A stretch of 64,000 bases of DNA, taken from Microbotryum violaceum. Taxonomy: Eukaryota. The first letter of the stretch is position 1, and every line of letters begins with the position of its first letter. Under the pieces are notes generated by a model that ran no database searches, had not been told where the DNA came from, and saw only the letters and a program-made list of their open reading frames with translations. The stretch is from positions 1,054,001 to 1,118,000 of the forward strand of contig CDLV01000014.1 in the NCBI GenBank assembly GCA_001244265.2. The letters run 5' to 3'. Of this stretch, positions 1-62,691 are shown in pieces. The translations under genes and the position numbers were made by a program.

Positions 1-446
1 GGTCTTTCCAACGGTCAGACCATTCGCGACCAGGTCGGCGATGTCGGCGTCCTTAGGGAATCGGATGCCGTGTTGTCCCTTGATGACGCAGGGCATGGCG
101 CCTGCAAGGGCCGGGTAGTGGTGATCGAGTGCTGAGAGCACTTTCTCGGAGGTGGTCGCGGGAGGGGTTTTGATGATTACACAGTTGGCGATGTTGTGAA
201 TCATCGGGTGGGAGGCAACAGTCGTGGCGGTGGCGGGGGTGGCGTTGGTCTTCGCATGGGAACGGGCGGAGACGGCCGCGGAGTACGACTTGGTTTGGGC
301 GGTGACGGTGACGCCGGTGGGGTCGGGAGGGCGATTAGGTGCTATAGCACCGGGGGTGGCATTGCTGGTGTCGTTGTTGTTGTGGTTGTTCATGCGTGTC
401 GCCCTGGGTTTGAAGATCACTTATCGAGCTTCGAGACGCGTTTCGC
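1..446 (-). mobile_element. 5' end of a second, diverged L1/Tx1-like LINE (ORF1 starts at 393 and runs off the window)
   Basis: Minus-strand translation from ATG 393 (MNNHNNNDTSNATPG...TKSYSAAVSARS...HPMIHNIANCVIIKTPP...CVIKGQHGIRFPKDAD...VANGLTVGK) aligns with ORF1 at 5603 (TKSYSAAVGARS...HPLMHNIENCVIINTPP...CVIKGQRGLRFPKAAD...VANGLTVGK). Only 53 nt separate its ATG from the upstream element's poly(A). Confidence 0.9.
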
Positions 447-616
447 TTTTTTTATTTATTTGATAGACTTCATTAACAGCATAATTATATTAATACCTAC
501 AAATCTTCGGAAAAGTCGGAGGGAATGCTGTTACGCACACTGGCAGAAGCCAGTAGCGTAGGACTCATTGACCCTGAACCAGGATCAACCATACCCACTA
601 AAACCCCTTTGGTGTC

Positions 617-3600
617 TTACAGAGACACTAGGCGACCCTTGGACTCCTGGATAGAGGCTCGAAGCCCCTCGAACTCCGTTTCGGTGATCGGTTCCAAAAG
701 ATCCGACGAGAATCGACGACGGCGACAGAGCTTCCAGATCGAGTGAAAGAAGAGGACTCGTAGTTCGACAAGTCGACGTTCCGAGCGAGACACGACCGGG
801 CATACAAAGTCCACAAAGACTGGGTGGGGGGTCGGGGACAGAGCAGACCAGAGGCGCCGGGCAAATGGGCAGCCGACCGCGAGGTGAACCAGGCACTCGG
901 GTGCTTCCGAGAGGCACATCACACAGGAGGTAGATCGATTGTTGGGATGTGGGCTGGTTGGGGAGGCGACTTGGCTTCCCGGATGGAGGGACCCCAGGGA
1001 GAGAAGGTGGCCGGTATCCTCGGCGTCCGAGTGAACCCGGCGAACCTTGCGCAAAGCCTTCCACCAAGCGTTCCAGCGTTGCTCAGGCAGATCGAATACC
1101 TTCTGGTGTCCCTTGGGGAAGATAAGGGGGAAGATGAAGACTTGGTGGCGTTTGGACGCGTTCACAAACGAAGACGGGGTCATCACCTCGCCATCGGGCC
1201 CTCGAAAAAGCGTCGGGTTTACCGAGAGTTGTATTCCGTGGCCCGCTGGGAAGAAGAGTACGTGCGACGCCCATTGCTCGAGGTTCTGACTCTTGGAGAG
1301 TTCCGGGGGATTGAGCGTGGTCACCAACGCCCAGGCTTCGAAGTATCGGACCCAACGAGCAGGAAGAAGTTTTGTCGTTTTTCTCACCGCATGGTCCCAC
1401 TTTGGGGGAGGATGGCAAAAGTATGCCCACCAGATCCAAATCCAAGGGCAACGATGCTGGTTGGGGGCCGGTCTGGACAAGGTGAAAGGGGTTGGTTCGT
1501 TTGGTGCCTGGAGGCGGATGCGGATGTCGAAGAGGTGGCGTGTGAAGCAGCCGTCCGGGGCCCGGAGCTGGAAGACCCACTTCGCGTGATCGATTGCTAG
1601 ACGCCGAGGCAGATCAATCAAACCGAAGCCGCCGTGATCAAGAGGGGTGCAGAGGCGCGACCGGGAGACCTTCGGACGTCGCTGAGTACCATCCGAAGCT
1701 CGACCGTGAATGGCGAGCATGGCGGCCTCCTCGATCTCCTTGACAACGCTCTTGGGGCGGGAAGGAATCGGCTGTAGTACAAGATCTTTGTGTAGCAGTA
1801 GATGTTGATGATCGAACACTTGGCTGCATATGGGAGATCGTACATCGGAATCGAGCGTATCCGAGCGATGGTCGAGGCCTTGACATCTTCCCAGCCCGCA
1901 TCCTCGGCGATCTCCACCCCGACCTGAATACCAAGGTAGCGAAACTGCGAATCGCTGAGACGCCAGGTCCCGAGATCTGGGGCGATCGACCGATCCCGAA
2001 AAGTTCTAAGGGGGTAGAGGAAAGATTTGACGTTGCTGAGCTTGCTGGCACTTGCCCGTTCGTAAAGCTCGATCGCCCGATTGACGTAGTCGAGGTCCGA
2101 GAGGTTGTGGAGTGCGCAGCAAGCGTCGTCGGCAAAAAGGAGTTCGCGAACGTTTTGGAGGCCCGCAATATCGATGCCCTTGACTCTCAATCGAATCTGA
2201 CAGGCAAAACCTTCGATCGCCAGGACGAAGAGAGACGGAGCCAAAGGATCACCTTGCCGAACGCCCGACAGGATGTCGAAAGTGGCAGAGAGCCAACCGT
2301 TGAGGAAGATCGAGGCAGATTGGTTGGTGTAGGTCGCTCGGTACCATTGGCGGGCTTTGGGGCCGAGGCCAACGGCGCAGAGGACTGCATCAAGGTACGG
2401 GTGGGAAAGACGATCGTAAGCCTTTTCAAAGTCCATCACCGCTAGCATGCCAGACACGGGTGTTGAGCCCGGAAGTCCAGGGTCCATGAGACACTGGACC
2501 TCAGCGATGTTTGTGCCGATCCAATGGTTCGGAACAAAGCCACGTTGGGTTGGCCCGATCAGGGACTCGAGCAAGGGAGTGAGGCGCTGGTTGTGGGCTT
2601 GCGAGATGATGCGCTCGTCCGCATTGATGAGCGATATGGGGCGTTTGTTTGAAAGCTGATCCCTCTCGCCGCGTTTGTGGATGAGATGGATGTGGGCGGT
2701 GTTGCGGGGAAGAGGTCCAGGCTGACGGGCCTCGGTGGGGATCGAGTTGATGACGTCTCGAAGAATCGGGCCAGTGGCCGGCCACGTAGCGCGATAAAAC
2801 TCAACCGGGAGGCCGTCAGGCCCTGGCGAAGAGTTCGACTTACACGCCGCTTGAGCCTTTGTCATCTCCTCCAACGGGTACGCTTCCTCGAGCTTGAGTG
2901 AGTCCGCGGGGAGAGGCGAGTTGAAGCGAGGCCGTCGATGACCGCCTTCAGGACCGCGTCATCGATGGGGCGGTCCTCTAGACCCGCTCGAAGTAGTCGC
3001 CGGCCGCTCCAAGCATCGAATCAGAGTCGGAATGAACAACATTGTTGACCGTGACCGAAGGGATCAGGTCGGATGCTCGCACTTTGCGCAGGCGGATGAA
3101 GATGGAAGAGGGACCCGCCAGAGATGGGTCGAGGCGGGACCGCAGGGCCGCGCCGTAGCGCGAGTGGTCAGCCCTCTCTTGCTCCGACCCGCCACGACGG
3201 AACCGAGCGAAAGTCCGGGCCAGAGCCTGCAGCTCGGGCAGCAGGCGGTGTTTGGTGGACGTCCAAGCTGCTGGTAGATCGTTGGGCGTCTGGAGGAGGG
3301 CTTTGTTGTAAAGGGTGCGGACAATGGAGGTGAGGTACTCGCAGGTCGCGTCGCCCTCGATCACGTGCAAACCCAGCTTGAATTTGCCCGGACCGATGTC
3401 GATTGCGCCCGGCACTTGGAACCGTGCCACAACCATTGAGTGCGTCGATTTGAGGAAAGGAGCCCAAATTTTGTGATCATGGAAGAGGTCGACCCAATCA
3501 GGCGAGACATAGATGCGGTCAAGGCGACGGCACGTGCCGGGCGCTGAGCGATTCGTCGTGGCTCGTCCTTTGGGATGATGGAGCCGATAGGCGTCGAAAA

Positions 3601-4188
3601 GATTGTTGGCCGTGGCAAGGTCGCGCATCTCCTGACCCCCATAATTCGTTCCGTTTTGGTTCTCCGAATCGAGGGGCTGGGACTCAACACAATTCCAGTC
3701 CCCCCGACTAGGAGCGCAGGCGGCGAGGGTTCGTCACGTACAACTTGTCGGAGGGCGGTGCTGAGGTGTGAGAGGAAGCGTTTTTTGTCTGGCTTGTCGG
3801 AGGAAGGCGCGTATATTGATACAACCCGGACTTTTGAATCACCCACACAAAAGGTGGCGTCGGTGACTCGGTCCGGGAAAGAGAAAGAGGCACGAAGAGT
3901 GTTTGGAGGCGACTCGGGATCAAAAGTAATGACCACGGAGTCGCACTTCCAAAGTATGGCAGTGTTGTTGAAAGGAGTGAAAAGAGCGGAGAGCTTTAAG
4001 CCTTGGCACTCCTGAGTCCACTGGGCCACCCTTTCGGGGGAAGGTCGGCCAGTTTCGCTCAGGAGAAAGACGTCGGCGTTATGGGAGCGGAGATTGGAGA
4101 AAAGAGAGGCACGCTTACGGTCTTCATTGATTGACTGCACGTTGACAGCAACAAAAGACACGTTTAGGATTTTAGTTGTGCTCATCAT
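617..4188 (-). pseudogene. LINE ORF2 (APE endonuclease - reverse transcriptase - CCHC), broken by several frameshifts
   Basis: Pieces in ORFs 3361-4404 (VNVQSIN...DVFLLSET...SIYAP), 2978-3628 (DAYRLHHP, RLDRIYVS), 1618-2874 (SPGPDGLPVEFY, RPISLIN, DFEKAYDR, GVRQGDPLAPSLF, LFADD, FRYLG) and 617-1819 (GGFGL, CVMCLSEAPECLVHLAVGC). Confidence 0.95.
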
Positions 4189-4189
4189 C

Positions 4190-5603
4190 TTGGTCCATAG
4201 CGTCTTCCACGTCCTTAGGAGGTGCTTCTTGGTCTTCGGCTTCTTCGTCGGCCTCGTCGTCGGTGTCGGCGTTATCGGGTCGGGCTTTGGGCGCGGCTGA
4301 GGGCAACGGCGTGGGCGAAGACGGCTCGGGGCTCGGCTCGGAGGCTTCGAGGGCAGGCGCAGTGGGAGGGGCTTCACGAGTGGCTGGCTTGGAGAGGGCG
4401 GCAATCGACTTGGATCGAGTTATGATCGACTTTGGCGTGGCCGGAGGAGGGCTTGGGGATGGAGAGGTGGTCTCTGAGCTGGGGACTCGGAGGATTTTTC
4501 AAAGAGGGAGTAGGCAATTCCCTGATTGGAGGCAGGCTGGGGGGCAGGAGGAGTGGCAGTTTTGCAAGGGAAATTGAAGGAGAACTCGGGGCGGGCATTC
4601 TTCGACAGAGAATCGGGCTGAGCTCTGTTGGACAGATCTTCAGTCTGGGCAGCCAGATCCTGTTCCACGCGACGTTTTTTGGTCGTGCGGTCGTGGGCGG
4701 AGGCCGGGGAGATCGACTTGGACACGGCGGCGGGGGCGGCGGTGGTAACGGTGGAGGCTTGCGGGGCACGTGACGTGGGGGGTCCCTGGGGGCTCGACGC
4801 ATGACGGGCCGGGCGGTGCTGGGTGGCGTGCGAGGTGCTCGCGCAGGACTTGCACGCCGGGGCGACTGGGCAATCCTTACGGACGTGAGCCGCGGAACGG
4901 CAGAAGACGCAGTGGCGCATGCCACCGGTGATCCTCAGTGGGATTCGCTCAGTGACACCGTCACAAGCAATAGAAAGTGAGGCAGGGGGCAGAACATCTA
5001 CATCCTTAAGGGCAAGGATAAAGTCGTACACCCCAGAGATGTGTTTCGTCTTTCCAATGTACTGGATGCGACGACGGAGGACCGTGCCATAGGCAGCGAT
5101 CTGCTCATCGAATAGGCAGAGGCCCTCGGGTCGGAGAAAAAGCCCGTAAGGGTGCATTGTACAACACCTCCTCTAGTAGAGCTGTACAGCTTCTCGACTT
5201 TGCACAGAGTCTTGCCAACAGTGAGGCCGTTGGCCACCAGGGTGTCGAGATCGGCGGCCTTGGGAAAGCGGAGGCCGCGCTGACCCTTGATGACGCATGT
5301 CATTGCGCCGGTAAGGCCAGGGTAGTATTTGTCAAGCGCGAGGAGGACTTGCTCGACCGAGGTTGAGGGTGGGGTGTTGATGATGACACAATTCTCGATG
5401 TTGTGCATCAGTGGATGGGCGGCGACGGCAGTCGAGGCGTTGGCGGTGGCGTTTCCGTGCTTCGCAGCGGAGCGGGCGCCGACCGCGGCGGAGTATGATT
5501 TGGTGGTGGTGGCGGGGGCTTGGCCGGGAGGATCGGGAGGGTCAGGGCGAAGAGGTGGTATAGCAGCATGGCTGGCGTTGTTGGTGCTGTTGTTGTTGTC
5601 CAT
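4190..5603 (-). pseudogene. LINE ORF1 (gag-like nucleic-acid-binding protein), frameshifted
   Basis: ORFs 4998-5603 and 4420-5157; CX2CX4HX4C knuckle CVFCRSAAHVRKDC followed by a second CKSC...H motif; located immediately upstream of ORF2. Confidence 0.88.
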
Positions 5604-5632
5604 CCAATAGGAGTTTCCTTTTTCCAGGATGA

Positions 5633-5898
5633 AAAATTAAGTCACCCCGAAAAGGGGAAAGGGAAAGGAGAAAGATTTGGACTAAGAGCGTTGGCGTGCA
5701 TCAACAACGGCAATTTTAAGTAAAAGGCGTAAGATTGATTCTGTGGTCGATACACCGCTCAGTATTAAAATTAAGTCACCCCGAAGAGGGGGAAAGGGAA
5801 AGGAGAAAGATTTGGACTAAGAGCGTTGGCGTGCATCAACAACGGCAATTTTAAGTAAAAGGCGTAAGATTGATTCTGTGGTCGATACACCGCTCAGT
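5633..5898. repeat. Tandem duplication of about 132 bp (5633-5763 and 5767-5898)
   Basis: Direct comparison shows two almost identical units with a period of 134-135 bp. Confidence 0.97.
5641..5765 (-). ncRNA. U5 snRNA-like unit, copy adjacent to LINE ORF1
   Basis: Minus strand ATACTGAGCG-GTGTATCGAC-CACAGAAT-CAATCTTA-CGCCTTTTACT-TAAAATTG-CCG-TT-GTTGATGCAC-GCCAA-CGCTCTTAGT. Invariant U5 loop I GCCTTTTAC at 5720-5728, internal-loop CCG, three stacked helices, then a 3' CCCC/GGGG hairpin. The Sm-site position (AAATCTTTC) is non-canonical. Confidence 0.8.
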
Positions 5899-5901
5899 GA
5901 T
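5775..5901 (-). ncRNA. U5 snRNA or U5-like gene, upstream copy
   Basis: Near-identical to 5641-5765; loop I at 5855-5863; begins ATCACTGAGCGG; differs only at the 5' terminus and around the 3' hairpin loop. Confidence 0.8.
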
Positions 5902-7889
5902 AAAACGAGCGGGCACGAATTCCAGGCGAAGCTAATCGCCCTTCCTTGGCCCCCCCCCATTAGAGTGCTTTCGCGATACTCGCGCTTGAACAAGTCACTT
6001 AGTACTAGCCATCTTCGGTAATCACTTGAGTTAGGTGGCTGTGAGGGATTAGGCCGATTAGATATTGAAAGGGCGCAGGGTCGGTTCCGCTTCATTCGGT
6101 CCGAGATTGGAGCATAGCACGACAACATCATCCCATGCAGGCCTTGAACGATGCCTTCGATTGATCATTGCCACTCACCAACATGAACATGACGATCGCC
6201 GAGCTCCTCGCCTTCGATGTCGCTCCCGCCGACGCGTCTCTTCACATCGAGTTGTCCAAAGACGAGCTCACCCACTACTCGACCTTATCATCTACTCGAG
6301 GCCGTTGAGAAGGCAACTGAAACAGCTTCTCACGACCAATCGTGCGTCTACCAAGCTCAACTACCGAAATTTTGGTCTAAGCTCACGCGTGTTTGGTTCT
6401 ACACAGCCCACACACTTGAAACTTCCGCCTCAAGTTGTCGATGCTCGCGATACCAATTTCTCGCTGAACTGGCCAACCTGATTGCCCATCAAGCTGCTCA
6501 TAAGTGTAGCCACCTCAAGCTGTTCTACTCAAGGGAGGCCGATGGAAGCGACCGACCCAACTCGCGGAGAGGCAGGCGTAAGGGTTAGCAATACAGAGGA
6601 CGCAGTACAGCAAATTCATGCGTCTTGAAAGGGTTGGTACAGTCCATGGGACCATCTCGCTGCGAAGACATGGCGGGCACGACGAGGAGCTTTTGCTGTA
6701 CTGGAGGTGACCAGATGGCCCGAGCACTCACAACACACGAGGATCCAGAAGAATGTCTATACTGAGGATGGCCGCATTCAAGTGAGTTGTCGCTGAATTT
6801 AGGAGCGAAGGCAACTGGATCTAATGTTTGGAGAAACAAGCAGACGGAGCACTAGCACAACGCTATCCTCATTTTGGAATGCTTGACGGCGGAGCTGTAA
6901 CCACTACCACAACATCGGAGATTGGATCTCTGGTCTGCTTTGGCCTCAAGCGTGGCATGCATTCACTCAGCTGCGATCAAACTGCTTATGGAGAAGAAGC
7001 GCTGTCCATTGGAATTGGTATGATGCCTTGAATGGCAGTTGAGCTGTGACGTTCTCACTTGACACAGGTCTTGTCTGCTGCAGTGCGATACATCTACAGC
7101 AAAGTGACAACAGCGCGCTTGCGTCGTTGGTTGTACTTCCAAATATCGTCGTACAGGAGCTTCGCCTCATCAAGAAAGCTTGCTCTTCCATTCACCTCGT
7201 TGATGGCACTATGCCGTTCCGCATGATTGATGGTCGGCAGGTCATCGAATCATTAGGCCCGCCAAAGGTCACATACAGTTCAACCACGTACCTTACCTCA
7301 CTTTACCCCGACAAGCGCATAATCAGCACGAGCGCACATGCCGAGCAAAGTTTTGCCTCCCTTCGGAGCGTGCCCGGCCTGCGAGATGCCGCCGGCAGAA
7401 CCTCTACAAGCCACAAATGCCACGGCGGATACGAAAAGCTCAAGTTCAGCAAACCGATTCTGACAATGAAGTAGCGAGCCTGCCAACCAAGCAAGGAACG
7501 CTTGTTTGATGTCTGGAGCCACGCGCGACACCAGCCGAAGCGACGCGCGCCGCAAGCCACTTTCGATTGGCCGCCGCGCGCCCGCAAACGCTCGGAACGC
7601 GTTTTCGAGGACTTTTGAGCGATTTTTGGAGCATGTAGAACACATTTTGATAATATTTCCGAGGCGCATGCGAAATTTTGACATCTTGGGGCCGAAATAG
7701 GGTAAAAAAAATTGACAAAAAGGCCACAAAAGGGCGTTTTTCTCATGCGCCTCTGGCTGGGCTTTCGGGGGTTCTGCGCCAGCTCGCGCACTGCTCGCAC
7801 CCTACGCGCTTCAACCCACTCACTCCTCTCATTAATCTTGCCTCTCTGTGCTTCCGGCCGGCGATACATCCGCGTGCTCACACACACAA

Positions 7890-9528
7890 ATGTCTGAAAC
7901 CCCATCAAGTCTCCCTTGGCGTATTCAGAGCTCGTTCCGGTCTGCGGTCGCGTTGAAGCAGGTCAATCTGTTTCGGTCGAGCGAGATTGTCCGGATCGAT
8001 GACGCGCCACCGACGTTCCCGAACCAGCTCGTGCACATCTGCCCCGATCTCGCCCACAAGCCTTCAGCGCCCCCAAAGTACGCACCACTTTCCAAAGCTA
8101 GAGTCTGTTGACCCTTTAACGGTTGCTCGAGCTTGGCCTCCTAGCGCTGATAGTCTTTCACGGCTCCCGCTTGAACTCTTTCGCGCTTGCTCCTCTGCTC
8201 CATTGGCCCCTCGCACAGAACGCCTGACCTGAGCAAAGTCGGCAAGCGCGATCCTTTACAGGGCCCCGAGTACGGACCTGGGGAGAAGGTTCAAGATTTT
8301 GAATGCGGAGGCGTCTCTTACTCAATTGTGCACAATCTACACGCGCTGATGGAAGGTCAGTCCGAGGATCCACGACTGCACGACTTCAGACGACTTTGAC
8401 TTTGCCGCTTCTAGCTTGGTCCTGATGCTTGTCGCGCCGTGTAAATGCGTTGATCCTGCGGCGGTTCCGCAGAACATGGTATGATCGTACCACAATTTGG
8501 AGAGTCCACCCCGTTCCGACCTCAAACGAGCGACTTGATCGATAGCGACCTCGAAGCGGCGTATTCGCTGACGCAGCAATACGCCGACGACGGTCGGGAG
8601 ATCATCTGCTTTTTCAAGTGAGTTTTCGTTACTTTAGTGCTGGAGTGAGAGTAGAAGCGGGATGGGTAATCAAACAGCTTGGGGTTGGCACTGTACCTCA
8701 GCGGGGGGCCTCTTGCTGGTGCCTCGCAGCCACATCTTCGTGAGTAGAAGGGCAACCCTGATCGCGTCGGCGAAGGATTTCAACTGATAAGCTTGAACCG
8801 CCTTGCCTTATGTTATGTTGAATTCCGCCTCTCAATGGATCTTGTGCCCCACAGACATTCAGTTCTGCCCGTTCCAACTTTCCACTCCGCCGGCTCCTGA
8901 ACTACTTGCTCGGGCTATAGGATCAGGTAAGTGTCTCGAAGGCATGATTCAAAACTGGCCTGAATACCAGGACAAATGGACAATGCACTGATATCCTTGA
9001 TGACGACGAGACCGATAGTGTCGGAAGATAAGCCTACCAAATTGAACATACCGTGGATTCACTACATCATACCGATTCCGCCATCACCCACGACCGCAAC
9101 GCTGTCCACGCTTTACCATCGCTTGCTCAAGACGAACAGGGACTACCTCGAAGCGCACGGCAAGAGCGATCGGACGAGTTACAACCTTTTCATTACGCAG
9201 AAGTTTATGCACCTTGTCCCTCGAACCAAAAGGTTGATCAGATTTGAGCGGAAGAGTTCGGAAGGCAAGACGGGTAGGTTCATAGGTGCCGGCTTTCGGA
9301 TACCTCGCTCTGGCTGATGGGACAAAAGCCACTGACCGAACGTGGAACTCGTCCATAACAGAAGAAGTGAACTTCTCGGTCAACGGCTTGGTGATACTTG
9401 GCTTATGGCACGTCCAGGATTCAAACACGCGGGCCGAACTTCTGCAGTTCGGACTTGAGAGAGGGCTGAGAAGTTGCTGCGTCGCCAATGGGGACTATGC
9501 GGCGGCGAATTATGAAAAGGGCTCTTGA
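7890..9528 (+). CDS. APA2: Ap4A phosphorylase / ATP adenylyltransferase (Apa1/Apa2 family), multi-exon
   Basis: Spliced reading gives ...RDPLQGP...PQTSDL...IICFFN|GGPLAGASQPHL|HIQFCP (HxHxQ motif)...SYNLFITQKFMHLVPR...FSVNGL; GT-AG introns at the joins. Confidence 0.8.
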
Positions 9529-20745: not shown

Positions 20746-23514
20746 TGGGACATAAAGCCCAAGCTGGCGATGTCGACAGCATTCCACCCACAGACCAATG
20801 GGCGCAGCGAACGAACGAACAGGACGGTGATCCAAGTCCTGCGAACACTGGCCAATCGCCGGCAAAATGACTGGGCCAACCACATCGCAACGGTCGAATT
20901 CGTAATTAACTCCAGCCTGAACAAGTCGACGGGAAAGACGCCGTTTGAAGTGGTGCTGGGCTTCAATCCCGAGCTGACCCCGATTGCTCCACGGGACGGC
21001 TCAACGGTGTTGCAGGCGGTGGAAGCGGTTGTGGACGAACGAGAAACAGCAGTGGCGGAAGCAAGGGACAACTTGGCAATTGCAAAGATCCGACAAGCCG
21101 AACAGAGCAACAGGAGGCGGAAAGTAGACCCGGTGTTTGCTGTCGGGGACAAGGTCTTGGTCGACTCCCGGGATCGACGTCTGCGGTACAAGGCGGATGG
21201 GGAAGCACGGTCAACCAAGTTCTTCCCACGATTTGATGGGGGCCCTATGAAGTTCTTGCAGCGCGGCTGGAAACATCAAATTACAAGCTCAAGCTGAACC
21301 CCGGCGACAAGACGCACAATGTTTTCCATGTATCCAAGCTGCGGCGATGGGTAGCAAACGATGGGGAGGCCTTCCCGGGCCGCCATGCAGCCGAACCAGC
21401 GGCAATCATAGTGCAGGGAAACTAAGAATGGGAAGTGGAACGCATCGTGGATGAAAAAGGGAAAGGGAAAAGGAAGAAGTTCTTGGTTAAATGGAAGGGA
21501 TGGGCGGACAGCGACAACACTTGGGAGCCTAGATCGCATCTGGAAGAGACGGCAGCTTTAGACCGGTGGGAAAACGAGAACCGGGAAGGGGGGTAAGGAC
21601 AGGGAGGAGAGGGTGTAAGGATGGGAGAGGATTTGGAATAGGTGGTGGAGAGTGTAAGGCCCGTGCGCCTGACCCTTAGGAGAAGAGACGCGCGCCTGGG
21701 CACTGTTAGTCTCTCAGCGACTAACGTAGAGTGTCCAGGTGAGCCCAAGTGTATCAGAAGGCATTGTCATAGTAGCGACTAACGTAGAGTGTCCAGTGTC
21801 AATCCTACATACTTTGGTCCTGTGATCTTATTGTTGTCGCTCCGGTGTGCACTCCTACGGGGTGTATTACACCACCACCTGCGCCAAGCCCCCGGTCACG
21901 ACATCGACGTCTTTCAGGAATTCTCCGATCAGATGCGTTCACTATAAATGGAGATCGGATTCCAGGTTGTCTCCGACCAAGAAGTGGCCAAGCTGGTTCT
22001 CCTGGGCACCGATCCGGAACTCTGCCGGATCCTGCGCACCCACATGGTCTCGTCGCTGGCTGGCTAGTCGGACCTATCGCTCGAGAAGCTTGCCCTCGAC
22101 GCTCCAGTGGTCCCTACCAGGCCGGAGGCCGCCGAGGTTTTTAGTGATGCACACACAGACCAACCTCTCGAGTTCGATTACCAAGTCTTTGAGAGGATTG
22201 GTCGCGAGGAATGGAGCGTCATCGCGCAGCGACGCCAAGCCATTGCGACCCAGGTCAGTGCGCTACAACAGCGCCCCACGTACTCGCGACCCGCTGCAGT
22301 CTCGGCTACACCTCAAGTTGCGACAGCTGCTACCGGCCATTCCCCGATCACGGGTGGCCCCCGCCCCGTCGCCTGACTCACCGTCGACGAGCGCGCGTAC
22401 CTGGACCAGAACCACGGATGCTATCGCTGCCGCACTCTCAATGCCGACCACATCTCGCGCAACTGCCCCCGCTACTTGTCACCCATGGGAGCGTCCGCCA
22501 CTCCGTCGACGCCAACGTCGAGCGCTCCTGCGCCTCGCCCCGGGCCCCGTATGGTGGCGGCCATTCGGACCTTCCAAGAAACTGGCAATTCAATCGTGTT
22601 TGCCGGCCTCAGCAGCGACTCGGAGGACGACAATGATCCTTCGTACGCACCGCATCCCTTTCCCCCCTTACCCGTCTCCCTACTCGGCGCTCATGGTACT
22701 CTCCTTGCCTCCGCCCTAGTTGATTCGGGATCACCTCAAACGTTTCTCAGTGAGGAGCTTGTTCAGCGATTGGGTTTGGAAAGGCACGCCCTGGAACAGC
22801 ACTCGAAGTACACCCTTGCAATGCAAAACCAAGTCCCCACTGTCTTCGCCTGCACGCACTTTGTTCGAGTCCCGCTCGAGCTGGCCAACGGGCTCTGGGC
22901 CGCAGGACCAACGTACGCCGAGGTAGCGCCCCTCGGGAAGGACCTTGAGATTATCTTGGGAGGCAACTTCATCTATTGGCACAAGATGGAGCTCGGCCTC
23001 TTCCCTCAGCCACACCTCACCTGCAAAGCCAACCCCGTACACTCTATAGACCTGCTGGCGCTGTCGTCCCAGCCGTGCGGGTTGCCTCAATTGCTCCGGT
23101 TGTTGACGCCGAGGAGCAGCTCCGCCTTGCCGCGCTTGACCATCGCCTCCGAGCGGAGTTTGCCGACCGTTTTCCTGCGGATATCCCGCCTGTACACTCG
23201 TACCAATCCCCGGTGCGACACCGCATCGAGCTTGACAAGCCGTCCACTGTCGTCAACCTTCGAGGATACCCCCTCCCAAAGAAGTATCGCGAGGCATGGT
23301 ACTTACTGCTACAGGAACATCTCGCGGCCGGTCGCCTCCGCCCCTCTCGGTCGTCATACTCGTCACCCTCGTTCATCATCCCAAAGAAGGGCTGCAACGT
23401 GGATCCCGCGATTGCCCCGCACTGAGTGAACAACTACCGCGAGGTCAACGAGCACACCATCAAAGACCGCATGCCTCTGCCCTTGCCTGATGACATTCTC
23501 TCGACGTGCTCCAA
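20746..23514 (+). mobile_element. Ty3/Gypsy chromovirus remnant in permuted order: integrase C-terminus/chromodomain - PPT - LTR - gag - protease - RT start
   Basis: [24 protein letters not shown](PY); [10 protein letters not shown]...[17 protein letters not shown]; polypurine tract 21601-21613; ALVDSGS protease; RPSRSSYSSPSFIIPKK RT start; stops and frameshifts present. Confidence 0.92.
21614..21809 (+). repeat. Probable single LTR (TGTAAGGAT...ATCCTACA) with an internal 23-bp direct repeat
   Basis: Starts with TG right after the polypurine tract; imperfect inverted ends; AGCGACTAACGTAGAGTGTCCAG occurs twice. The right boundary is uncertain. Confidence 0.6.
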
Positions 23515-27019: not shown

Positions 27020-30000
27020 CAAGGGTTCTCATAGGATCAGATCACCGGAGGATCAGATCAAATCCGATCTTTTTTTTTCCCAATCCGCGTCTATCTTGTC
27101 TTGATCCTATCCAGAAGGATCAATTTAATCTGAGACATTTAACTGCCTTATATGGCAACAGACGACTACATCTCACTAGTTGTCGCTATCGGTGTTGAGC
27201 CTATCATTCTCACTACTACCACCAATATTGTGGCCATCATAACTATGTTCCTCATCCTTGTCGGCACCATTATCATCATCATCATCATCCGAAATGATCA
27301 CCTCACTGATTCGCCTTTTTTTATGAGCTCCGATTGCGCGCGTTGCCCTCGCCGGTGTAGGTGGGTTTCGCATGACATCTACAAAATGCGAACATAATTT
27401 ATAGTCGGTTTAGACTTTACCCTAACTCGTAAAAAAAAGTGTGAGTTAAGGAATGTACCTAAAATCGTTGTTTTTAACTAGGTTGCGGCCCTCCGGGCCG
27501 CCTGTGGTGGATGTACCATACTGTTGTGTCTGCCGCACCTGCCTGTGGTGTCTATGTTCCGATCAGAAGTCATGTACAAGCGCTGTGGTGACTTTTGTAT
27601 TTTCCGCGCCGTTCCAACGAAGCTACAGCGCTCCCAGTATTTTCCTTCTTTTTTTCGCTCACATAAAACAATGCTTCCACTCATATTGCATTTAATGAAC
27701 GCAAGCGCGTGGCTTTGCATGATATTGCTTCTACGGCAGAGCTCTGCCTGACGTGCGAGGCGAGGGCTGGCGTTTGTCACGTGATGCGGTGCGCCGGCGG
27801 TGGAGTGTCATTCCGGCAGTCGACCAGCGGCATTAGGGGCTGAACAACCAATTTGCCCGTATGGCATTCGACCAGCGGCATTAGGGGCTGAACAACAAAT
27901 CAAACCACGTGAATAACCCGGCGCCACTCCCTCGAACCTTTCCTTTCTCCCTCCCACTCTCATCCAATTTTAGTGACACTCATTCAAGAACAAACCCTCG
28001 CCACTATGCCCCGGTCCCGGCCCAAGGTCGCCAGCCTCGCCAAGTCTTGGGCGCGAGGGTAGCGCCGTACCATAGCGTAACATGGGCCTGCTCGAGCGCC
28101 CGCTGCTGGGCGCCCCGCGGCTCGACCCTCCTCTTCGTCCCGCTCCGATCAACAGAATCAGCCCCCCGGCGCGTCATGACAACAATTCAACCGATCTTGG
28201 CATTGCGACACGTATACGAGCCCGCCGTGCAGCTGTGCAGAACGGACAGCGTGGTCAGCGCGATGGCCAACTCGACGCTGGGCTCGCCCCACCACCACCT
28301 CCGCAAAGGCGAGTGCGCCGGGCTCGAATCGCGCTCAAACCCTTCAAGCCCACGTTTCGATCCGCGACGACCTCGGCCCGCAGACGGCCGTGTGCACCCA
28401 CTGCAAGGCTCGGCACTGGGAGTGCGAAAGGTCCAAGTCGACCAGACACTTCAGCGCGTGCTGCTCGCAGGGCAAGGTGCGGCTACCTCCCCCTCCCCAG
28501 CCCAATCTCGAGTATCGGCAGCTTCTTGAAGGCTCGGATAGCCGTCAGTTGCTCCGTCCAACAACATCTCTCTGCAGTATGGCCCACATGCTGAACTGTG
28601 CGACCCACCTACACAGAAGCTAAAGCATTCCGCGAAAACGCCCGGTCCTACAACAACGCGCTGTCGTTCACTTCGCTCGCTGCCCACTGGGACCAAACTT
28701 AAATGGGCACGCTAGGACCCCGTGTGTTTCGCGTATTTGGTCGTCTTTACTATCGACTCGGCACCCTGATCCCTGCCGTGAATCAATGCCCAGCCTTTGC
28801 TCAAACATGGCTGATCAACCCGGCCGAGGCCACCGACACTCGACTTGAACCCGACGGCGCAGACAGTCACATGCAACGATCTACTTTGACCAAGCTCGAG
28901 TCCATGTTGCGTACCAAGAATCACTTTGTGAGGGAGTTCGCATCGGCCAAAGCTCGCGCAGGTTGGGATACGGCCAAAGAGTGGATCCTGCGCCTCTGCC
29001 TCCCGCCAGGCCGGGACCGACGCACCCACAACCTTCCTACGTCGAGCACGGAAATGGCGATGCTTATCTGCGATTCCGACACCAACACGGGAGATCGTGG
29101 ACGTCAAGACCTTATTCTCCAGGTGCACGGTGATCGATGTCCCGATGGTCGGCCCAAGTACCAAATCGTTAGCTCGCTCCATCCCCCCGCGATGCCTCTC
29201 CGTTACCCACTACTTTTTCCTGCCGGGGAAGATGGCTTCCACCCCAACATTCCTCTTTGCGGGTTCCACCAAGCCGGGCCGCCAATTGCAAGAAACCGAG
29301 AGCAGATCGACAATGGTGCCAATTGCGCGAGCTACTTGCCGGTCTCGGTCTGGATGACGAAGAGAATGGTGATGGTGAACGTAAGCCCTTTCGGCTCTTT
29401 CTCGGATGTTCCATTCTGTTAAGGCGCACGCACAGACTGACATTGAACGTTTGAACACCTAGGACGAAGCTCAAATAAAGGGGAGCGAGGTGACGAGTTT
29501 CGCGTTCACAGTTATTAGCGTACGACTTGCACAAACGCGACGAGTACTTCTCAATCCCGCATTGCACCCAACGTGGCTTCCTGGCGTTCGTAATGACGGA
29601 TACTCCCAGGTCGAGACCGATCGACTCAACTTACCTCCAGTTGGATCAAGAAAACCTTCGCCTCACCACGGGCCAAGGCATCATCAGCTTGACCTCGGAT
29701 CAAGCTGGATGTTCGGTGATTTTGGGCTCAACGTTCAAGAATAGACCGCGCGAGAACACGCAGCGTTACCAACATGCGATGGCGTGCGTCGTAAAACATG
29801 GAAAGCCTTCGCTGTTCATCACGGTGACGTGCAACCCGAATGGCCTGAAATCAAGGCTACACTGGGGCCGAACGACCAAGCAAGCAATCGACCGGAACTC
29901 ATTGCACGAGCGTTTGAATCCAAGTTGAACCGACTCTGCGACGACAACGTTTTTGGCAACAAGCAACGGGCAGGCTGTTTGTGAATGGAGAACTGTTTCT

Positions 30001-49537: not shown

Positions 49538-52500
49538 TCACTGCCACTGCATAGCATCCGAAGATGCTAAGTAGGGCGTGAAGGTGGGCGAAGCCGAGTT
49601 CGAGCTGGCCGATGTCCCGCCCACACTAGGCCGTCGAGCGGGGGACGCGGAGGTGAGCGAGCCGATTGCGGACCCGTCTGTTCCCTGCTTCTGTGTCTTG
49701 GCCCATCTGTAGGAGTGAGAAGAATAAGGTCTGTCAGCACGTGGACTGATATACAAGTGAGGATACTCCGCAGAGCTGGGGAAACTAACCGAAGTCCACA
49801 TCGGTTGCACAAGGTCTTGGCGCCTGTCGGACCGGCGCGCCACTCAGGAGAGTCGAAGCGACCGCAGTTCGCGCAACCACGACCGCCATTCGTCTTTGTT
49901 GAAGCCCGCGATGAGCCACCATCCGACGATGTTTTCCGTCGCGACAGCGTCGTCGTACACCCGGCTTCCGAACGAGCGCGCTGGCCAAAGACAAAGCCGC
50001 GCTTCCGCGCAGTGACGATGAGATGCTCCTTCTCGTCGCGCAGCTTCTTGTTGGTGATTTGCAGCTGGTGCAGCTCGAACTGCCAACTGGTCGGTCGTCG
50101 CGACTCGAGTTCGTCAAAGACGTTGTCGCTGATCGCACTTGGGTGCGCGAGCGTCTTGAAAGTGCTTTGAAAAGGTGGTGGGCTGCTGGGAGTGGATAAC
50201 GATTCCGATTCCGACATCGGTGAGAGCACGTTCGATGAAGACGATCCGATCGCGGGTCCGTAGACGGGCGAAATGCTCGCAAACGGTCCTGCATTCTTGC
50301 GCTGCTCCGATCCGACCTCGTTCGTCTGGGCGAGGATGTTGCAGTGGAAGTTGCTCGAAGTGATGGGTTCCTCGAGCTCGTCGACGGCGCGAGGGTAGAA
50401 TCGCGTCACTACATCGGTGAAGCCGGATCGCAACTGATTTTGGAACCGGTAGCGCACGGTGGAAGCGACGCCATCCGCGCATTGCTGAAGCGCCTGTTCA
50501 ATGGCGGGGACGTGCTCGGGTGCGGCAAGATGCTGTAGCGACATGCCCATCATTTCGTCTCCGGTGCGGCCCAGCATCGACTCGACGGCCGAAGTGGCCG
50601 ACAGGATAGTGCCACCCGGTGAGACACCCATCCAAAACTCGGTGTCTCCCACGCCGCCAGCCTGCTTGAGATCGGTCCACGACATCCTCATGACCTCGCG
50701 CGGGCGGCCCACAAAGATGACGCACTTGCGCCCCTTACCCGGCTCGATATGCAGTTTGCCCGAGGCCTCAAGCCAGATGTAACCCGAGTGCTTCCGTCGA
50801 ATGCGGTACAGCAGCGACACGGTCGAGTTGTGGATCGTGCTCGTGTCCTTGAGCAGCCGCATGACGGGTACAACGTCACTCGGATGGCACAGCGTCGGCA
50901 AGGTCTTACCGATCAGCTCGGAAGGTTGATATTCGAGCACGGATGCAATCGAGGGCGAGCAGTATAGGAACGAGCCCTTGAGCGACAAGACGTGGATGAA
51001 GTCGTCGGCCTCACTCAGCAGCAGCTTATGAAAGGATCGCCTGTCCTCTTCCGATTCGAGGCCTTGCAACCCATCACGTTCAATAACTTCGAGCGTGTCG
51101 AGCTCGCCCTTGGACGGCGCGAGAGAGGTCGTCGATGCGGCAGCAGCGGCGAGCGAGCCTCGGCGAGCATCAGTGACGGCAGCCGAGGCGGCGGCTACGA
51201 GGTTGGCTTTGCTGTCCTCCTCGGTCATCTCCCACTCGGTATCATCACCCTGAGTGGGTACAATCGTACCTTCTTCTGCCACACCAGCCCTGTCCTCGAT
51301 CGAGGCCATGGAAATGGTCGTCCTGTGACTCGGCATCGACACAGTGCCCGTGTTGTTGTACAACGAGTAATTGACGACATATGTCCCGTCCTTCATGCGA
51401 TCGAGGATGGCGTTGGGTTGGTCCACGAGGTCGACCTGGAAGCCGACGAAGTAGGTGATCTCGTCCGAGTCCCACGCGATGGGGATGATAGTGACGAGAT
51501 TGATGAAAGGCTTGCCGTCCTTCTTGTAGTTGATCAAGGACGACTGCGACTCTTTGCGGCTCGCGATGTGGACACGCATGTGCCATGCCGCATTGCTGTC
51601 GGTGTACTTACGAGGAGTACCCTGAGCTTGCGAACCCGTCGGCGACTGCAAAAATCGGCCTGGGGAGCGTGCAAATAACCAAATGTGAGCCCTGGCCGCA
51701 GGAGGCCACCACACCGGGCCAGTCAAAAGTAAAACTCACAATTCTTGCCAATGATCTCGTCGTTCGAGTAGCCCGTCATGCGTGTGAAAGTCTCGCTAGC
51801 AAAAACAATGGGTTGATCCCATCGCTTGGCATCGACGACGAGAAACGCGCAGCTCGTGTCCACGGCGCCGATCGAAAGTTGCGGGTTTGGCCGGGCCGCA
51901 ACGCGGGCTAAAAAACCGAGCATGTCGAAACCGCTCGACGAGTATAGTCCAGCAAAGTTGGTGCTCTCGCCAGCTGGCGGAGGCACCGGCAACCCCAAAG
52001 ATGCAGGTTCGTAGGTTGACCCTGGAGGAGGCGCCTGGGTAGGGGCCATCGCGACGGCCTGTGCCGGCATCTTGTAACCCATCGGCGAGTTTGAGTTGAT
52101 CGAGATGATGGACGATCCATATGGAGCATACACAGGCCCTCCCTCGCTCGCGTGCATAGGGAGCGCGGGAGCAGGCTGAGAAACCGCCAAGTTCGGTCCT
52201 GTCGCGCTTCCGTTCGCGCTCGTCTGGTTTGCGGTGACAGGTTGGGAGATCCCTGTCTGCGAGGTCTTCCCAGACCCAAGCTGCTGTTGACCGCCATCGC
52301 CATGAACAGGTGAGTTGGCCGGGTTGGCCGGGAGACCGCCGAGCGAAGGGGTGGAGCCCATCCCACTGGCCGAAACTGCGGAGCCGAGTTGAGTGGCATC
52401 CTCATAGCCGACGTTAGTGACGCAGCCCGCGCCGGAGCCGAAAGCGCCGTAAATGTCCGTGGGTGCGGAGCTGCTGTACATGTTGGCGAACGAGTGGGAC

Positions 52501-59290: not shown

Positions 59291-60289
59291 GGCTGCGGGT
59301 GCGAGGTTGTTGGGTTAGGAGCTGCCAATTTCTGAGAGGAGGCGAGGCGCGATCGATGACGCAGTGGGATGAAGTGTGAAGGAGAGGGTTCAGGGCTCCT
59401 GAAGTGATCCATAAATTACGGGATGGTACTTGGTCATCAACAGAAACTTACATTATGTGCTTTAGGCCTCTTCTCGATGGAGATCGAAGACGAGGACGTG
59501 GAAGGAGAGAGACAGGAGAGGGTAGTATAGCTTTGGGTTGATTAATTGATTCAGCCGGAAGGGGGTCAACGCTTCAATGCCCGAATCCGTGTGCCTCCCG
59601 TGAAAACCAGTCGCGTGTAATTGGCAATAGCGCACTACGTACAGTCAGACCTGAGAAAATTCATATCGCCCAATCTTATACCTGTCAAAATTAACGCACC
59701 GCGGGGCGGCGACCAGTTCCTGAACCTCCAGTGATCCAGTGCCGTCTATAAAGTCACACTTACAACCGTGGCCCGAGGATAGGCTGTACCTCCTACTTAG
59801 CCGAAAGCGAATAACCACCTCAAGACAAAGCTAGAGACTCTAACGACATATCAAAAATCCACAGTTCATTCAATTTCGAGTCCATTTCGACTTTTCTTAT
59901 CATCATCCAGGCATATCTCTCTCTTTCGGTTTATCAAGCACGAGCCTTCCCGATCCTGCGGCTGGACCCAGCCGCGCGTCCCGAAGAGACTTCACGATCC
60001 TTGTCAGCGGCCTCTTCTCCGAGATCATCGACTGCGTCGCGTGAGTCGGACTTCTTGTTGTCGTCAGTGACTGTAAACCCCAAGAAATGAGCCGGCATAA
60101 AAGACGACGACCCTGCGGAGCGTGATCCGCCTCTACCTCCTGACGATGGACGAGTACCGGCCTTATCGTGTCGGTCGCACCCCGGGTCTGCTCGAGAATA
60201 TTAACGAGGGCAACACTCTACCGGTTCGCACGCGTGCTCAGCGTCGCGTCGCCGCCCTCAGTATTGTGTCCACAACCAGAGCTTATCGC

Positions 60290-60650
60290 TTTGGTTTCCA
60301 CTCGTCATCCACCGCTTCCCAAGACCTTCAAGGATGCGATGGCTTCGCCCGAGGCCGAGTCCTGGTACGCTGCGTCGGTCAAGGAACTTGACTCCATGGG
60401 CTTGCACAAGGCGTTCAAGCAAGTTTCGAGTTCACCTACTGGGGCTCGTGCCCTGGGCTATCGTTGGGTGTTTACTCGAAAGGAAGACGTCGAGGGCAAC
60501 ATCATCAGCTACAAAACTCAGTTAGTCGTCCAAGGCTTTGCTCCACGACTGGGGATCGACTACAACAAGACGCTTGCTCTTGTCTCGTCGATCACGACGA
60601 TCTTGTTCGTCGTCCGCCTTTGTGCCGCTCGTGGACTGGTCCTGACTTCT
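60290..60650 (+). mobile_element. Ty1/Copia reverse transcriptase remnant
   Basis: PKTFKDAM...W..A...EL.S...RWVFTRK.D.EGNI..YK..LVVQGF....GIDY..T. Confidence 0.85.
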
Positions 60651-62691
60651 CGGCGTCGCTGCATCTCTTCTATCAGAAGTCTATCTTCCACGCTCGCATG
60701 TTATCTGCGATAGTTGTCAGTGACTGTAAAGCGCAAGAAACCGAAACCGGCAGTAGTGAGTCGGTACAAAAGGTGTTGCGATTTGCGCTGTATAAAGACA
60801 GTTGTGGCGCGGTTGGTGCAAAGGACGGCAAAGGGTCTGCTGAGAGATATACGATTTAGCTCGTTGCCTGCCCAACAAGGACTCGGAGCAAAATGCCCCC
60901 ACAAAGAATTTGCAGAGATCCGAGTGCAAAGTACACCGTGCAACAAGCTTGGGTGTATCGAAGCACTTACCCCGAGCTACTCTAAGCTAGCCACGTCGAG
61001 GGTTTCATACCGAGCTGCTAGCAGCTTTGAACGTCCGGCAAGATGGAACTCTCGATCAGCGACCCCGTCAACTGGGAGGTAGTCTTGGGAGTGAGGAACG
61101 CACCTGTCCCTACAGGTGGTGAACGCAGCCATAGAAGCTGGTAAGGAAACGTCGACAACGCAGTGAAGGCCCGAAAGGGAACGTGCGTTGCGAGTACCGC
61201 CCGTGAGTCCGCGTGTGTGGGAAGCACAGCTATAGCATCCACGGGGGAGAGAGGGTCCGTGCGCGCGAGCCTGAATCGGCGCGTCAAATCCTTGCAGCAA
61301 AAGCCGAAAAGACCATAAGTGTACTGTACTCATTCGCCAGGTTGGCAAGAGCGACCACCTACTGTCAAGCCAAGCTCCCAGATGCTGTCCAATGAGTCGC
61401 AATGACTCGGCGTCGGGAGGCACGACTAAGACACGTGAACTGGGAGAGATCGACATCGCCGAAGGGTGCTGAGACCGTCGTCAAGCTCGCCCCCCGCCGC
61501 CGCCCGGGAGCCGCCCCCGCCAACGAGAATTACTAATGTTGAGATTGTCATCAGTTTCCCCAGCTCGCGCCCCCCCCCCCCCCCCCCCAATTTTCGTTGA
61601 ACAATCCTTCAGCTCTAGAGAGCTTCAGGGATTTATGGACTTTTCAATCTCCCGATTTTTCTGGTTGACAAGGCCTGTCCAATCTTATACCTTATAATTT
61701 ATGGGTTTACAGGTCAAATTATAAGATAAGAGAGAGCCGGACATGAGCGATTGATCAGGAATTGGCCTCTCCTTCGGCGTTCTTGTTGACGAGCCGCCTG
61801 CTGGAAGAGTCCGAAATGCCCCGAAACAGCCGAGAAGCGAGCACAGTAGAGCAAAGACGGCGGTTGACACGTTGACAGGCTAGTCGCGACGTGCTTCTCT
61901 CTTAAGACGTGCTTCTCTCTTAAGCTCAACTCAGCCCTCCCCCTGGGAGGGGCTTAGGACTTATCGGCGCGCCTGGCCCAGTTGCCCCCGAAATTTCAGG
62001 GCCATTTTGGGGTGGTTCTCTGTAGCGTGGCAAGTACTTACAATTATCCAAAACGCAGAGATGTTATTGATCTTCTACTAGAAGAAATGCCTTGTGCCGA
62101 ACGGCAAGATGATACCCCATCTGTAGACGAAGCTATAATGATCTGAAGTGTGCAAATTTGGTCAATTTGGTCCCGAGTGGTCCGAGCGGCAGCACGCTGC
62201 TGCAGCCGCCGGCTTGCGCACTTCGGCGTGTGCGCATCGGTTTTTCTCCCGTCCCATTCCGCATCACTCGTCTTCCCGGTACTATGCTCTTCGCTTGTTC
62301 TCGGTGCAACACCGCGCTTCTCTCAGAATGACGCGGAACCGCAGACGCTATGACTCGACGACTCGCCAGTATCACCGCCGTCAGGCGGATCTATTCGCTC
62401 GAAGTTCGGCTTCATAAGATATCTCTCGTGGTATTTCAGCCCATCAACACAACACGATATTGTTCACAATCATAGGCCAAAGCTCTTCAACAGTAATTGG
62501 ACCCAGCTCAAGCATCTCATCATACAACTCGCCCGCGAAGATGGCCGAGACGCACGAGGCCGAAGCAATAATTGGATCTCCAACCAGGTGGGTAACACTC
62601 CAGCATATCAGATCAGTATACAAGACCGCGGCAAGGCCTCTTAAACACTTGCATCCTACCTGTGCAGTCTGACTCAATCCTTGTGAAAGAG

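Follow-up and report, generated by a model that had tools for sequence, protein, structure and literature searches.

Does a long interspersed nuclear element (LINE) that lies directly behind two copies of the U5 small nuclear RNA (snRNA) have a lasting tie to U5, or did the two come together once? The question is raised by a locus of Microbotryum violaceum, near the start of a stretch of 64,000 nucleotides (nt; assembly GCA_001244265.2, contig CDLV01000014.1, positions 1,054,001 to 1,118,000 of the forward strand) that we call the window and whose own numbering is used throughout. An earlier note, made from the letters alone, had offered two models for the locus: in model (a) the element inserts at U5 genes and is transcribed by read-through, and in model (b) U5 forms its 5′ head. 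We find that the two U5 copies and the LINE (LINE-A) entered this site together, as one composite retrocopy in a repeat, R, that is unrelated to U5, and we tentatively favour template jumping of the LINE reverse transcriptase (RT) as its origin.

One insertion into repeat R

Read 5′ to 3′ on the minus strand, 447-5968 consists of a 70-nt leader, a U5 unit, a 13-nt spacer, a second U5 unit, 18 nt, LINE-A and a tail of seven A (Table 1). The hexamer TTTCGC at 441-446 abuts this A7 tail and recurs at 5969-5974, where it abuts the leader. A small open reading frame (ORF; 5817-6131, minus strand) that enters the leader from the right has two homologues in Microbotryum silenes-dioicae, the proteins P0123 and P0124. 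When 441-5968 is taken out, the window reads ...FKREYRETRLEAR, and P0123 across the same junction reads ...FKRERRETRLEAK. A contig of run X6 likewise has the letters of window 428-440 directly ahead of 5969. Because the outside DNA is contiguous both in P0123 and in the X6 contig, leader, U5, U5, LINE and tail are one insertion with a 6-bp duplication. Comparison of the sequences establishes 447-5968 as a single composite retrocopy from one target-primed reverse transcription event. Given one insertion, it follows that retrotransposed RNA or cDNA brought the U5 copies here, and that the site is not a U5 locus. The unit has the architecture of an snRNA/LINE chimera: snRNA and LINE lie on one strand, the snRNA on the 5′ side, and a single target duplication encloses the whole, which has its A tail at the LINE end.

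That the U5 units are instead resident genes, beside which the LINE inserted independently, with the 6-bp repeat a coincidence, is highly improbable. By our estimate a 6-bp repeat could arise by chance when the 5′ boundary may be placed freely, but such a coincidence leaves unexplained the contiguity, in P0123 and in an independent contig, of the letters outside both repeat copies; moreover the LINE alone is flanked by no duplication, and the 13-nt spacer gives no promoter room to the second U5 unit.

The host repeat R is multi-copy in other runs, as seen in the contig depth table. No Pfam family was found in 5820-7962, so that by Pfam R was taken as non-coding, and a self-repeat search for the ends of R gave nothing useful. 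The leader, with which the inserted unit begins, looks U6-like in short parts by eye, but matched no Rfam family at E ≤ 10. Between 5910 and 5960 (minus strand) it has a run of nine G and folds as one extended imperfect stem-loop (-27.4 kcal/mol, z-score -1.7). A scan for promoters and terminators of bacterial type, which is not suited to a fungus, gave 0 sites.

The U5 units and proposed template jumping

The earlier note had placed two near-identical U5 units on the strand of the LINE, and the Infernal check bore this out. At gathering thresholds, cmscan found two matches only in the 64-kb window, both to U5 (RF00020), both on the minus strand and head to tail: 5643-5761 (55.8 bits, E 1.6e-6) and 5777-5896 (55.3 bits, E 2.1e-6), each covering the full model (positions 1-117) and scoring above its curated cut-off of 40 bits. 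A permissive Rfam scan of 5560-6300 gave no credible match beyond these. In a blastn comparison 139 nt of the two units align at 97.1% identity; the tandem period is 134-135 nt, and in a MAFFT alignment their differences are confined to the 3′ terminal loop and the edges. From the end of the repeated block (5633) to the ATG of LINE-A ORF1 (5603) there are 29 nt, against the roughly 30 nt noted before.

The loop I sequence GCCUUUUAC is invariant in U5, where it caps a long stem with an internal loop. In both units loop I reads CGCCUUUUACU and is placed in the loop columns of the model; the covariance model also aligns the long stem and its CCG internal loop, as had been claimed from reading. 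Single-sequence folding of each unit reproduces the long stem (z-scores -2.3 and -1.9). In the helix of eight pairs adjoining loop I, two pairs are changed on both sides relative to the Rfam consensus (C-G for a-u and A-U for U-A), so the two compensatory changes given in the note hold against that consensus; one further pair of the same helix is a C.A mismatch, marked 'v' by cmscan. A canonical Sm site is of the AAUUUUUG type and is followed by a 3′ hairpin. Here the Sm-site region of both units is AAUCUUUCUC, without the G, where the Rfam consensus has AAUUUUUGg, and the 3′ hairpin is found in both units in the Rfam alignment.

U5 genes are driven by upstream promoters and have no internal one. 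Aligned with each other, the two copies are complete from the U5 5′ end to an identical trailer end, ...AATTTT, and 13 nt separate one U5 from the next (the 10-nt trailer and three letters). The second unit has these 13 nt only upstream of it, with no space for a promoter, and no TATA-like element was seen about 30 nt upstream of the first unit on reading the sequence by eye.

The origin to which we give most weight, with a rough probability of 0.4, is end-to-end template jumping by the LINE RT, a step that we infer. Having run to the 5′ terminus of the LINE RNA, the enzyme would jump onto a U5 RNA at its 3′ end, copy it, jump to a second U5 RNA, and from there jump to a leader RNA, with a few letters added at each junction. 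The U5 copies would be passengers and would give the LINE no promoter, since U5 genes are driven from upstream. We favour this origin because the U5 copies are complete, share one trailer end and lie 13 nt apart without promoter room, and because the architecture equals that of published snRNA/LINE chimeras. In such chimeras an snRNA lying 5′ of the LINE in the same orientation, within target duplications, is the signature of template switching, human U5/L1 cases included (PMC4476161), and double template jumps are described from Magnaporthe and mouse (PMC2104539).

The LINE family and its upstream sequences

Other copies of the LINE-A family were compared through the contigs of four runs (X1, X2, X6 and X19). 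At 5624, 21 nt before the ORF1 ATG, four X2 contigs (agreement 0.9) and one X6 contig switch to another sequence, common to them, that starts AAGTCGGC on the plus strand. Past the same point an X19 contig continues with 70 letters unlike the window, and an X6 contig of 1147 letters stops there. Upstream of the ORF1 region the copies have four or more different sequences. Summed contig depth falls from the bin at the LINE 5′ end (5383-5616) to the bin in U5 (5617-5850) in all four runs, by 7- to 120-fold (X1, 47275 to 387; X2, 28192 to 1331; X6, 66 to 9.5; X19, 20.8 to 1.5), a drop that is partly unsafe, repeats at 5648-5677 having been skipped in X1, and that serves as a secondary argument and not as a copy count. 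Within the window a second LINE, LINE-B, has R as its 5′ flank, unrelated to U5, so that one of the two LINE 5′ ends here adjoins U5.

Because other copies diverge at 5624 and the flank of LINE-B is unrelated, U5 targeting by the family as a whole is unsupported; judged from these flanks, the LINE family is dispersed independently of U5. In a target-specific snRNA-gene LINE, most or all copies have the target gene on both sides, at one fixed position, and the copies seen here do not. Model (a), insertion at U5 genes with read-through, finds no support for this locus or for the family, given these same observations and the location of the composite in R with its 6-bp duplication. The earlier note had also said that other copies with unrelated 5′ flanks would make the locus a one-off insertion or a template-switch chimera, which is close to the outcome; the other result that it named as fatal to its proposal, no U5 model hit, did not occur.

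Further searches were made for the junctions themselves. With the ORF across R, leader and U5 as a protein query, two of seven candidates were proteins of R only; the ORF across LINE and U5 gave no candidate, and a leader-plus-U5 peptide had two phmmer hits, both to unrelated repetitive proteins. Of the words of 5400-6000, a fraction of 0.58 was the highest in any run.

Several observations, besides the insecurity of the depth drop, weigh against template jumping. One X1 contig joins the start of ORF1, by way of 36 other letters, to the 3′ part of the leader, without U5; the leader may thus be no free RNA, but either a LINE 5′ untranslated region (UTR) or what lies upstream of a U5 gene. One X2 contig consists of a LINE tail (with five more T on the plus strand), TAAAAC and the 5′ end of U5. 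This looks like a second U5/LINE context, which a one-off chimera does not predict, and is a hint only. The 8-nt junction TCATCCTG between the second unit and the LINE matches the spacer and U5 start at five of seven aligned positions, a likeness in keeping with a LINE that interrupted a genomic array of U5. Human U5/L1 chimeras have a 3′-truncated U5 (PMC4476161); the Microbotryum copies are full length and have their trailer. The X1 and X2 junctions are one contig each, from two different organisms. Together with TCATCCTG they would fit either a source locus at the edges of U5 genes or a U5-bearing lineage that has moved repeatedly.

The first of these amounts to 5′ transduction. In L1 5′ transduction the upstream flank is co-transcribed with the LINE and moved within the target duplication. 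Here a LINE with a short 5′ UTR would have landed downstream of a small U5 cluster, or in it at the 5′ edge of a unit, and an RNA started upstream would have read through and been copied into R. This would be a weak form of model (a), with U5 as a recurrent landing or source site and not as the obligatory target of the family. We regard it as possible, if rather unlikely. It would account for the start of the inserted unit 70 nt upstream of the first U5 unit, with non-U5 sequence included, and for the resemblance of the letters after the second unit to the start of a further one; a LINE inserted at the 5′ edge of a U5 gene, and flanked by a duplication of some 6 bp, could have given the junctions of both the X1 and the X2 contig; and at least four upstream sequences among the copies are as expected if flanking promoters drive expression. 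However, a gap of 13 nt leaves no room for a promoter of each U5 gene, so that the tandem would have to be explained in another way, and a source locus with two U5 at that spacing is required, of which none was seen. The lack, by eye, of a TATA-like element ahead of the first unit, the other upstream sequence of most copies, and the single contigs from two organisms behind the X1 and X2 junctions also tell against it. It is favoured, on the other side, by the relatives of LINE-A, which are of the L1/Tx1 type, and by the existence of Tx1 families with U5 as target (PMC4494074, Fig. 3 legend).

The second, a U5-bearing sub-lineage, corresponds to model (b): the leader would be the true 5′ end of the UTR, the two U5 would have been captured once, and the composite would have been retrotransposed repeatedly, its U5 part perhaps with some influence on the fate of the RNA (it might have one). 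We consider this improbable. In its favour, the leader is associated with the LINE, being joined to ORF1 without U5 in X1; the X2 contig, with its LINE tail, six leader letters and U5, looks like a second composite, 5′-truncated, at the tail of another LINE; and the LINE may be intact and mobile, if its frame breaks, discussed below, are set aside. But one copy only has actually been seen, no predicted protein in large collections has the leader/U5 reading, the word content of the runs for 5400-6000 stays at or below 0.58, and U5 lacks an internal promoter. Of model (b) it stands that the U5 units lie inside the retrotransposed unit of this copy; they are not its 5′ terminus, which is the leader, they have not been seen to be a trait of the family, and a promoter role is not implied.

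The most far-reaching reading is a Microbotryum sub-lineage of the LINE with a special tie to U5, either by U5 in its 5′ UTR or by short-UTR members that land at U5 5′ edges and borrow transcription from upstream. Such a tie is hinted at because there are three separate leader/U5/LINE junctions, in the window, in run X1 and in run X2, and we hold it to be doubtful.

The earlier reading of LINE-A as a LINE with ORF1 and ORF2 agrees with our searches. Its ORF2 has an RVT_1 domain (E 7e-22), and residues 1-1628 of P0006, a model of 1628 amino acids (aa) for ORF1 plus ORF2 from M. silenes-dioicae, cover 5603-662 in six frame pieces (tblastn); the first 159 aa of ORF1 are 97% identical to P0006. 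Close relatives have PF03372 (endonuclease of apurinic type, APE), PF00078 (RT) and, weakly, PF13966 (zf-RVT), and a CCHC motif can be read in P0006. The features of L1/Tx1-type elements without long terminal repeats (non-LTR) are therefore present: a CCHC motif in ORF1, and in ORF2 an APE, an RT and a C-terminal zinc-binding motif (the APE and zinc motif being taken from close relatives). By these domains LINE-A is an L1/Tx1-type non-LTR retrotransposon, which may be of the L1 or of the Tx1 clade.

At seven sites of the LINE (603, 1753, 2907, 2978, 3699, 4480 and 5127) every covering contig of the four runs has one extra letter, and six of the seven one-base gaps sit at homopolymer runs of C or G. 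The frame breaks are likely to be assembly errors (long-read deletions) and not real frameshifts. That LINE-A is a dead copy was considered and rejected, as these gaps at homopolymers may be such errors.

The best relatives of LINE-A are M. silenes-dioicae proteins, 94-97% identical, and many more are found in M. intermedium and M. saponariae; by these matches the family is abundant in Microbotryum. For M. lychnidis-dioicae 392 LINE copies have been reported (Perlin et al. 2015, Table 2). Relatives in public contigs were represented by 80 loci out of 414 metagenome relatives, plus five loci from genome contigs. The nearest (L001) is 50% identical and has 72 nt ahead of ORF2, and the other loci are 24-34% identical. 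The loop-I motif occurs in one of the 80 metagenome loci (L003), where Rfam found no match, and there were no Rfam matches in the 20 of these 80 that were scanned, the other 60 and the five genome-contig loci lying outside the scan.

LINE-B and LINE-A are 73% identical in the nucleotides of ORF1, and P0006 is 64% identical in aa to LINE-B over the first 127 residues of ORF1. From these values LINE-B is a related but distinct subfamily, placed head to tail after LINE-A. R carries two LINE junctions in the same orientation 19 bp apart, the LINE-B 5′ end at 427/428 and the composite at 446/447. A loose TCNCGAARCG-like motif is common to both sites (8 of 11 letters, by eye), and it may be a preferred LINE landing site, as in Tx1-type elements.

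Table 1. Coordinates of the composite insertion, its host repeat and the adjoining LINE, in window numbering
Feature	Position	Strand	Basis or remark
LINE-B, second LINE; ORF1 ATG 393, 34-nt 5′ UTR 394-427	1..427, cut by window start	-	joins R at 427/428
Target-site duplication, tail side, TTTCGC (+ strand)	441..446	.	identical 6-mer at 5969-5974; R frame restored when 441-5968 is taken out
LINE-A 3′ UTR (454-616) and A7 tail (447-453)	447..616	-	reading of the sequence
LINE-A ORF2 (APE, RT, C-terminal zinc-binding region), several frames	617..4188; ATG 4188, stop 617-619	-	RVT_1 and P0006 tblastn
LINE-A ORF1, CCHC knuckle protein	4172..5603; ATG 5603, stop 4172-4174; frame breaks near 5127 and 4480	-	P0006 tblastn
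21-nt 5′ UTR common to other family copies	5604..5624	-	X2, X6 and X19 contigs agree with the window as far as 5624
8-nt junction TCATCCTG	5625..5632	-	may be the native 5′ terminus of the LINE RNA, added letters or the beginning of a third U5 unit
U5 unit 2	5633..5763 (U5 5643-5763; 10-nt trailer ACTTAATTTT 5633-5642)	-	RF00020, 55.8 bits, and alignment
U5 unit 1	5764..5898 (U5 5777-5898; trailer ACTTAATTTT 5767-5776; AAT spacer 5764-5766)	-	RF00020, 55.3 bits, and alignment
70-nt leader, 5′ end of the inserted unit	5899..5968	-	boundary from the target duplication
Target-site duplication, leader side	5969..5974	.	exact 6-mer TTTCGC, as at 441-446
Repeat R, insertion host	5969..7000, resumes at 428-440 beyond the insertion	-	multi-copy in other runs; P0123, P0124; mapped extent only

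The remainder of the window is ordinary gene-rich DNA. It includes further mobile-element remnants, namely a retroelement-like aspartyl protease (22377-23426), a Helitron_like_N domain (29494-29925) and a copia-type RVT_2 (60144-60710), and at 49570-51735 (minus strand) an open frame of 722 aa that combines a GATA zinc finger with several PAS domains, the architecture of a light regulator of the white-collar type.

In the composite, a LINE of a basidiomycete has captured and dispersed a complete spliceosomal RNA sequence, and has done so twice, which extends a phenomenon, the snRNA/LINE chimera, that is known from mammals and Magnaporthe. It is also a warning for annotation, as U5 matches in Microbotryum assemblies may be retro-copies and not genes. 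Were the tie to U5 recurrent, fungi would gain their first case of an snRNA-linked LINE, dispersed U5 copies would have a source in it, and there would be a handle on the transcription of LINEs with 5′ UTRs of 30 nt.

Comparison with known systems

In a literature search no association of U5 with a LINE came up for any fungus, nor for Microbotryum in particular. The earlier statement that no U5-associated LINE had been described was too broad, as U5 snRNA is among the targets listed for Tx1 families (Kojima 2015, PMC4494074, Fig. 3 legend); it holds in so far as no fungal case was found in print.

These target-specific Tx1-clade LINEs, with Keno (U2 genes) and Utopia as snRNA-associated examples (PMC4640811), resemble LINE-A in being APE-type and associated with snRNA genes, and tandem arrangements occur among them. 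They differ in that, as these sources describe them, almost every copy has the target gene at its flanks, whereas the composite here lies in R and most copies have other upstream sequence. SINEU (PMC4494074) has an snRNA-derived 5′ side on a non-LTR unit that depends on LINEs of the Tx1 type. Its heads are described as U1 and U2, on short, multi-copy, non-autonomous units; here full U5 is found in a copy of an autonomous LINE, of which one copy was seen.

The Magnaporthe grisea 'MINE' chimeras (WEIRD-MGL) and the tripartite WEIRD-MgSINE-MGL (PMC2104539) are fungal and LINE-driven as well, and include a double jump within direct repeats; the leader here may have the role of WEIRD. There the LINE is joined to a short interspersed nuclear element and to a non-coding RNA whose function is unknown, and the switch is placed inside the LINE at GCC(A/U) (PMC2104539), whereas here the partner is a spliceosomal RNA and the switch would be near the LINE 5′ end. 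The same report gives 33 bipartite copies, against the one Microbotryum composite seen.

Also close are the mammalian snRNA/LINE chimeras (U6/L1 and, rarely, U5/L1), in which the snRNA is likewise 5′ of the LINE, in the same orientation, within target duplications and with a 3′ A tail; three human U5/L1 chimeras are ascribed to template switching (Doucet et al. 2015, PMC4476161). The mammalian cases, as that paper presents them, have a 3′-truncated U5 and an L1 that is usually strongly 5′-truncated, whereas here two complete U5 with trailer, a leader and a near-full LINE are found, in a basidiomycete. On its structure, the Microbotryum composite works like a chimeric retrocopy made by a LINE, an object of a known kind, with each of the structural features that were checked.

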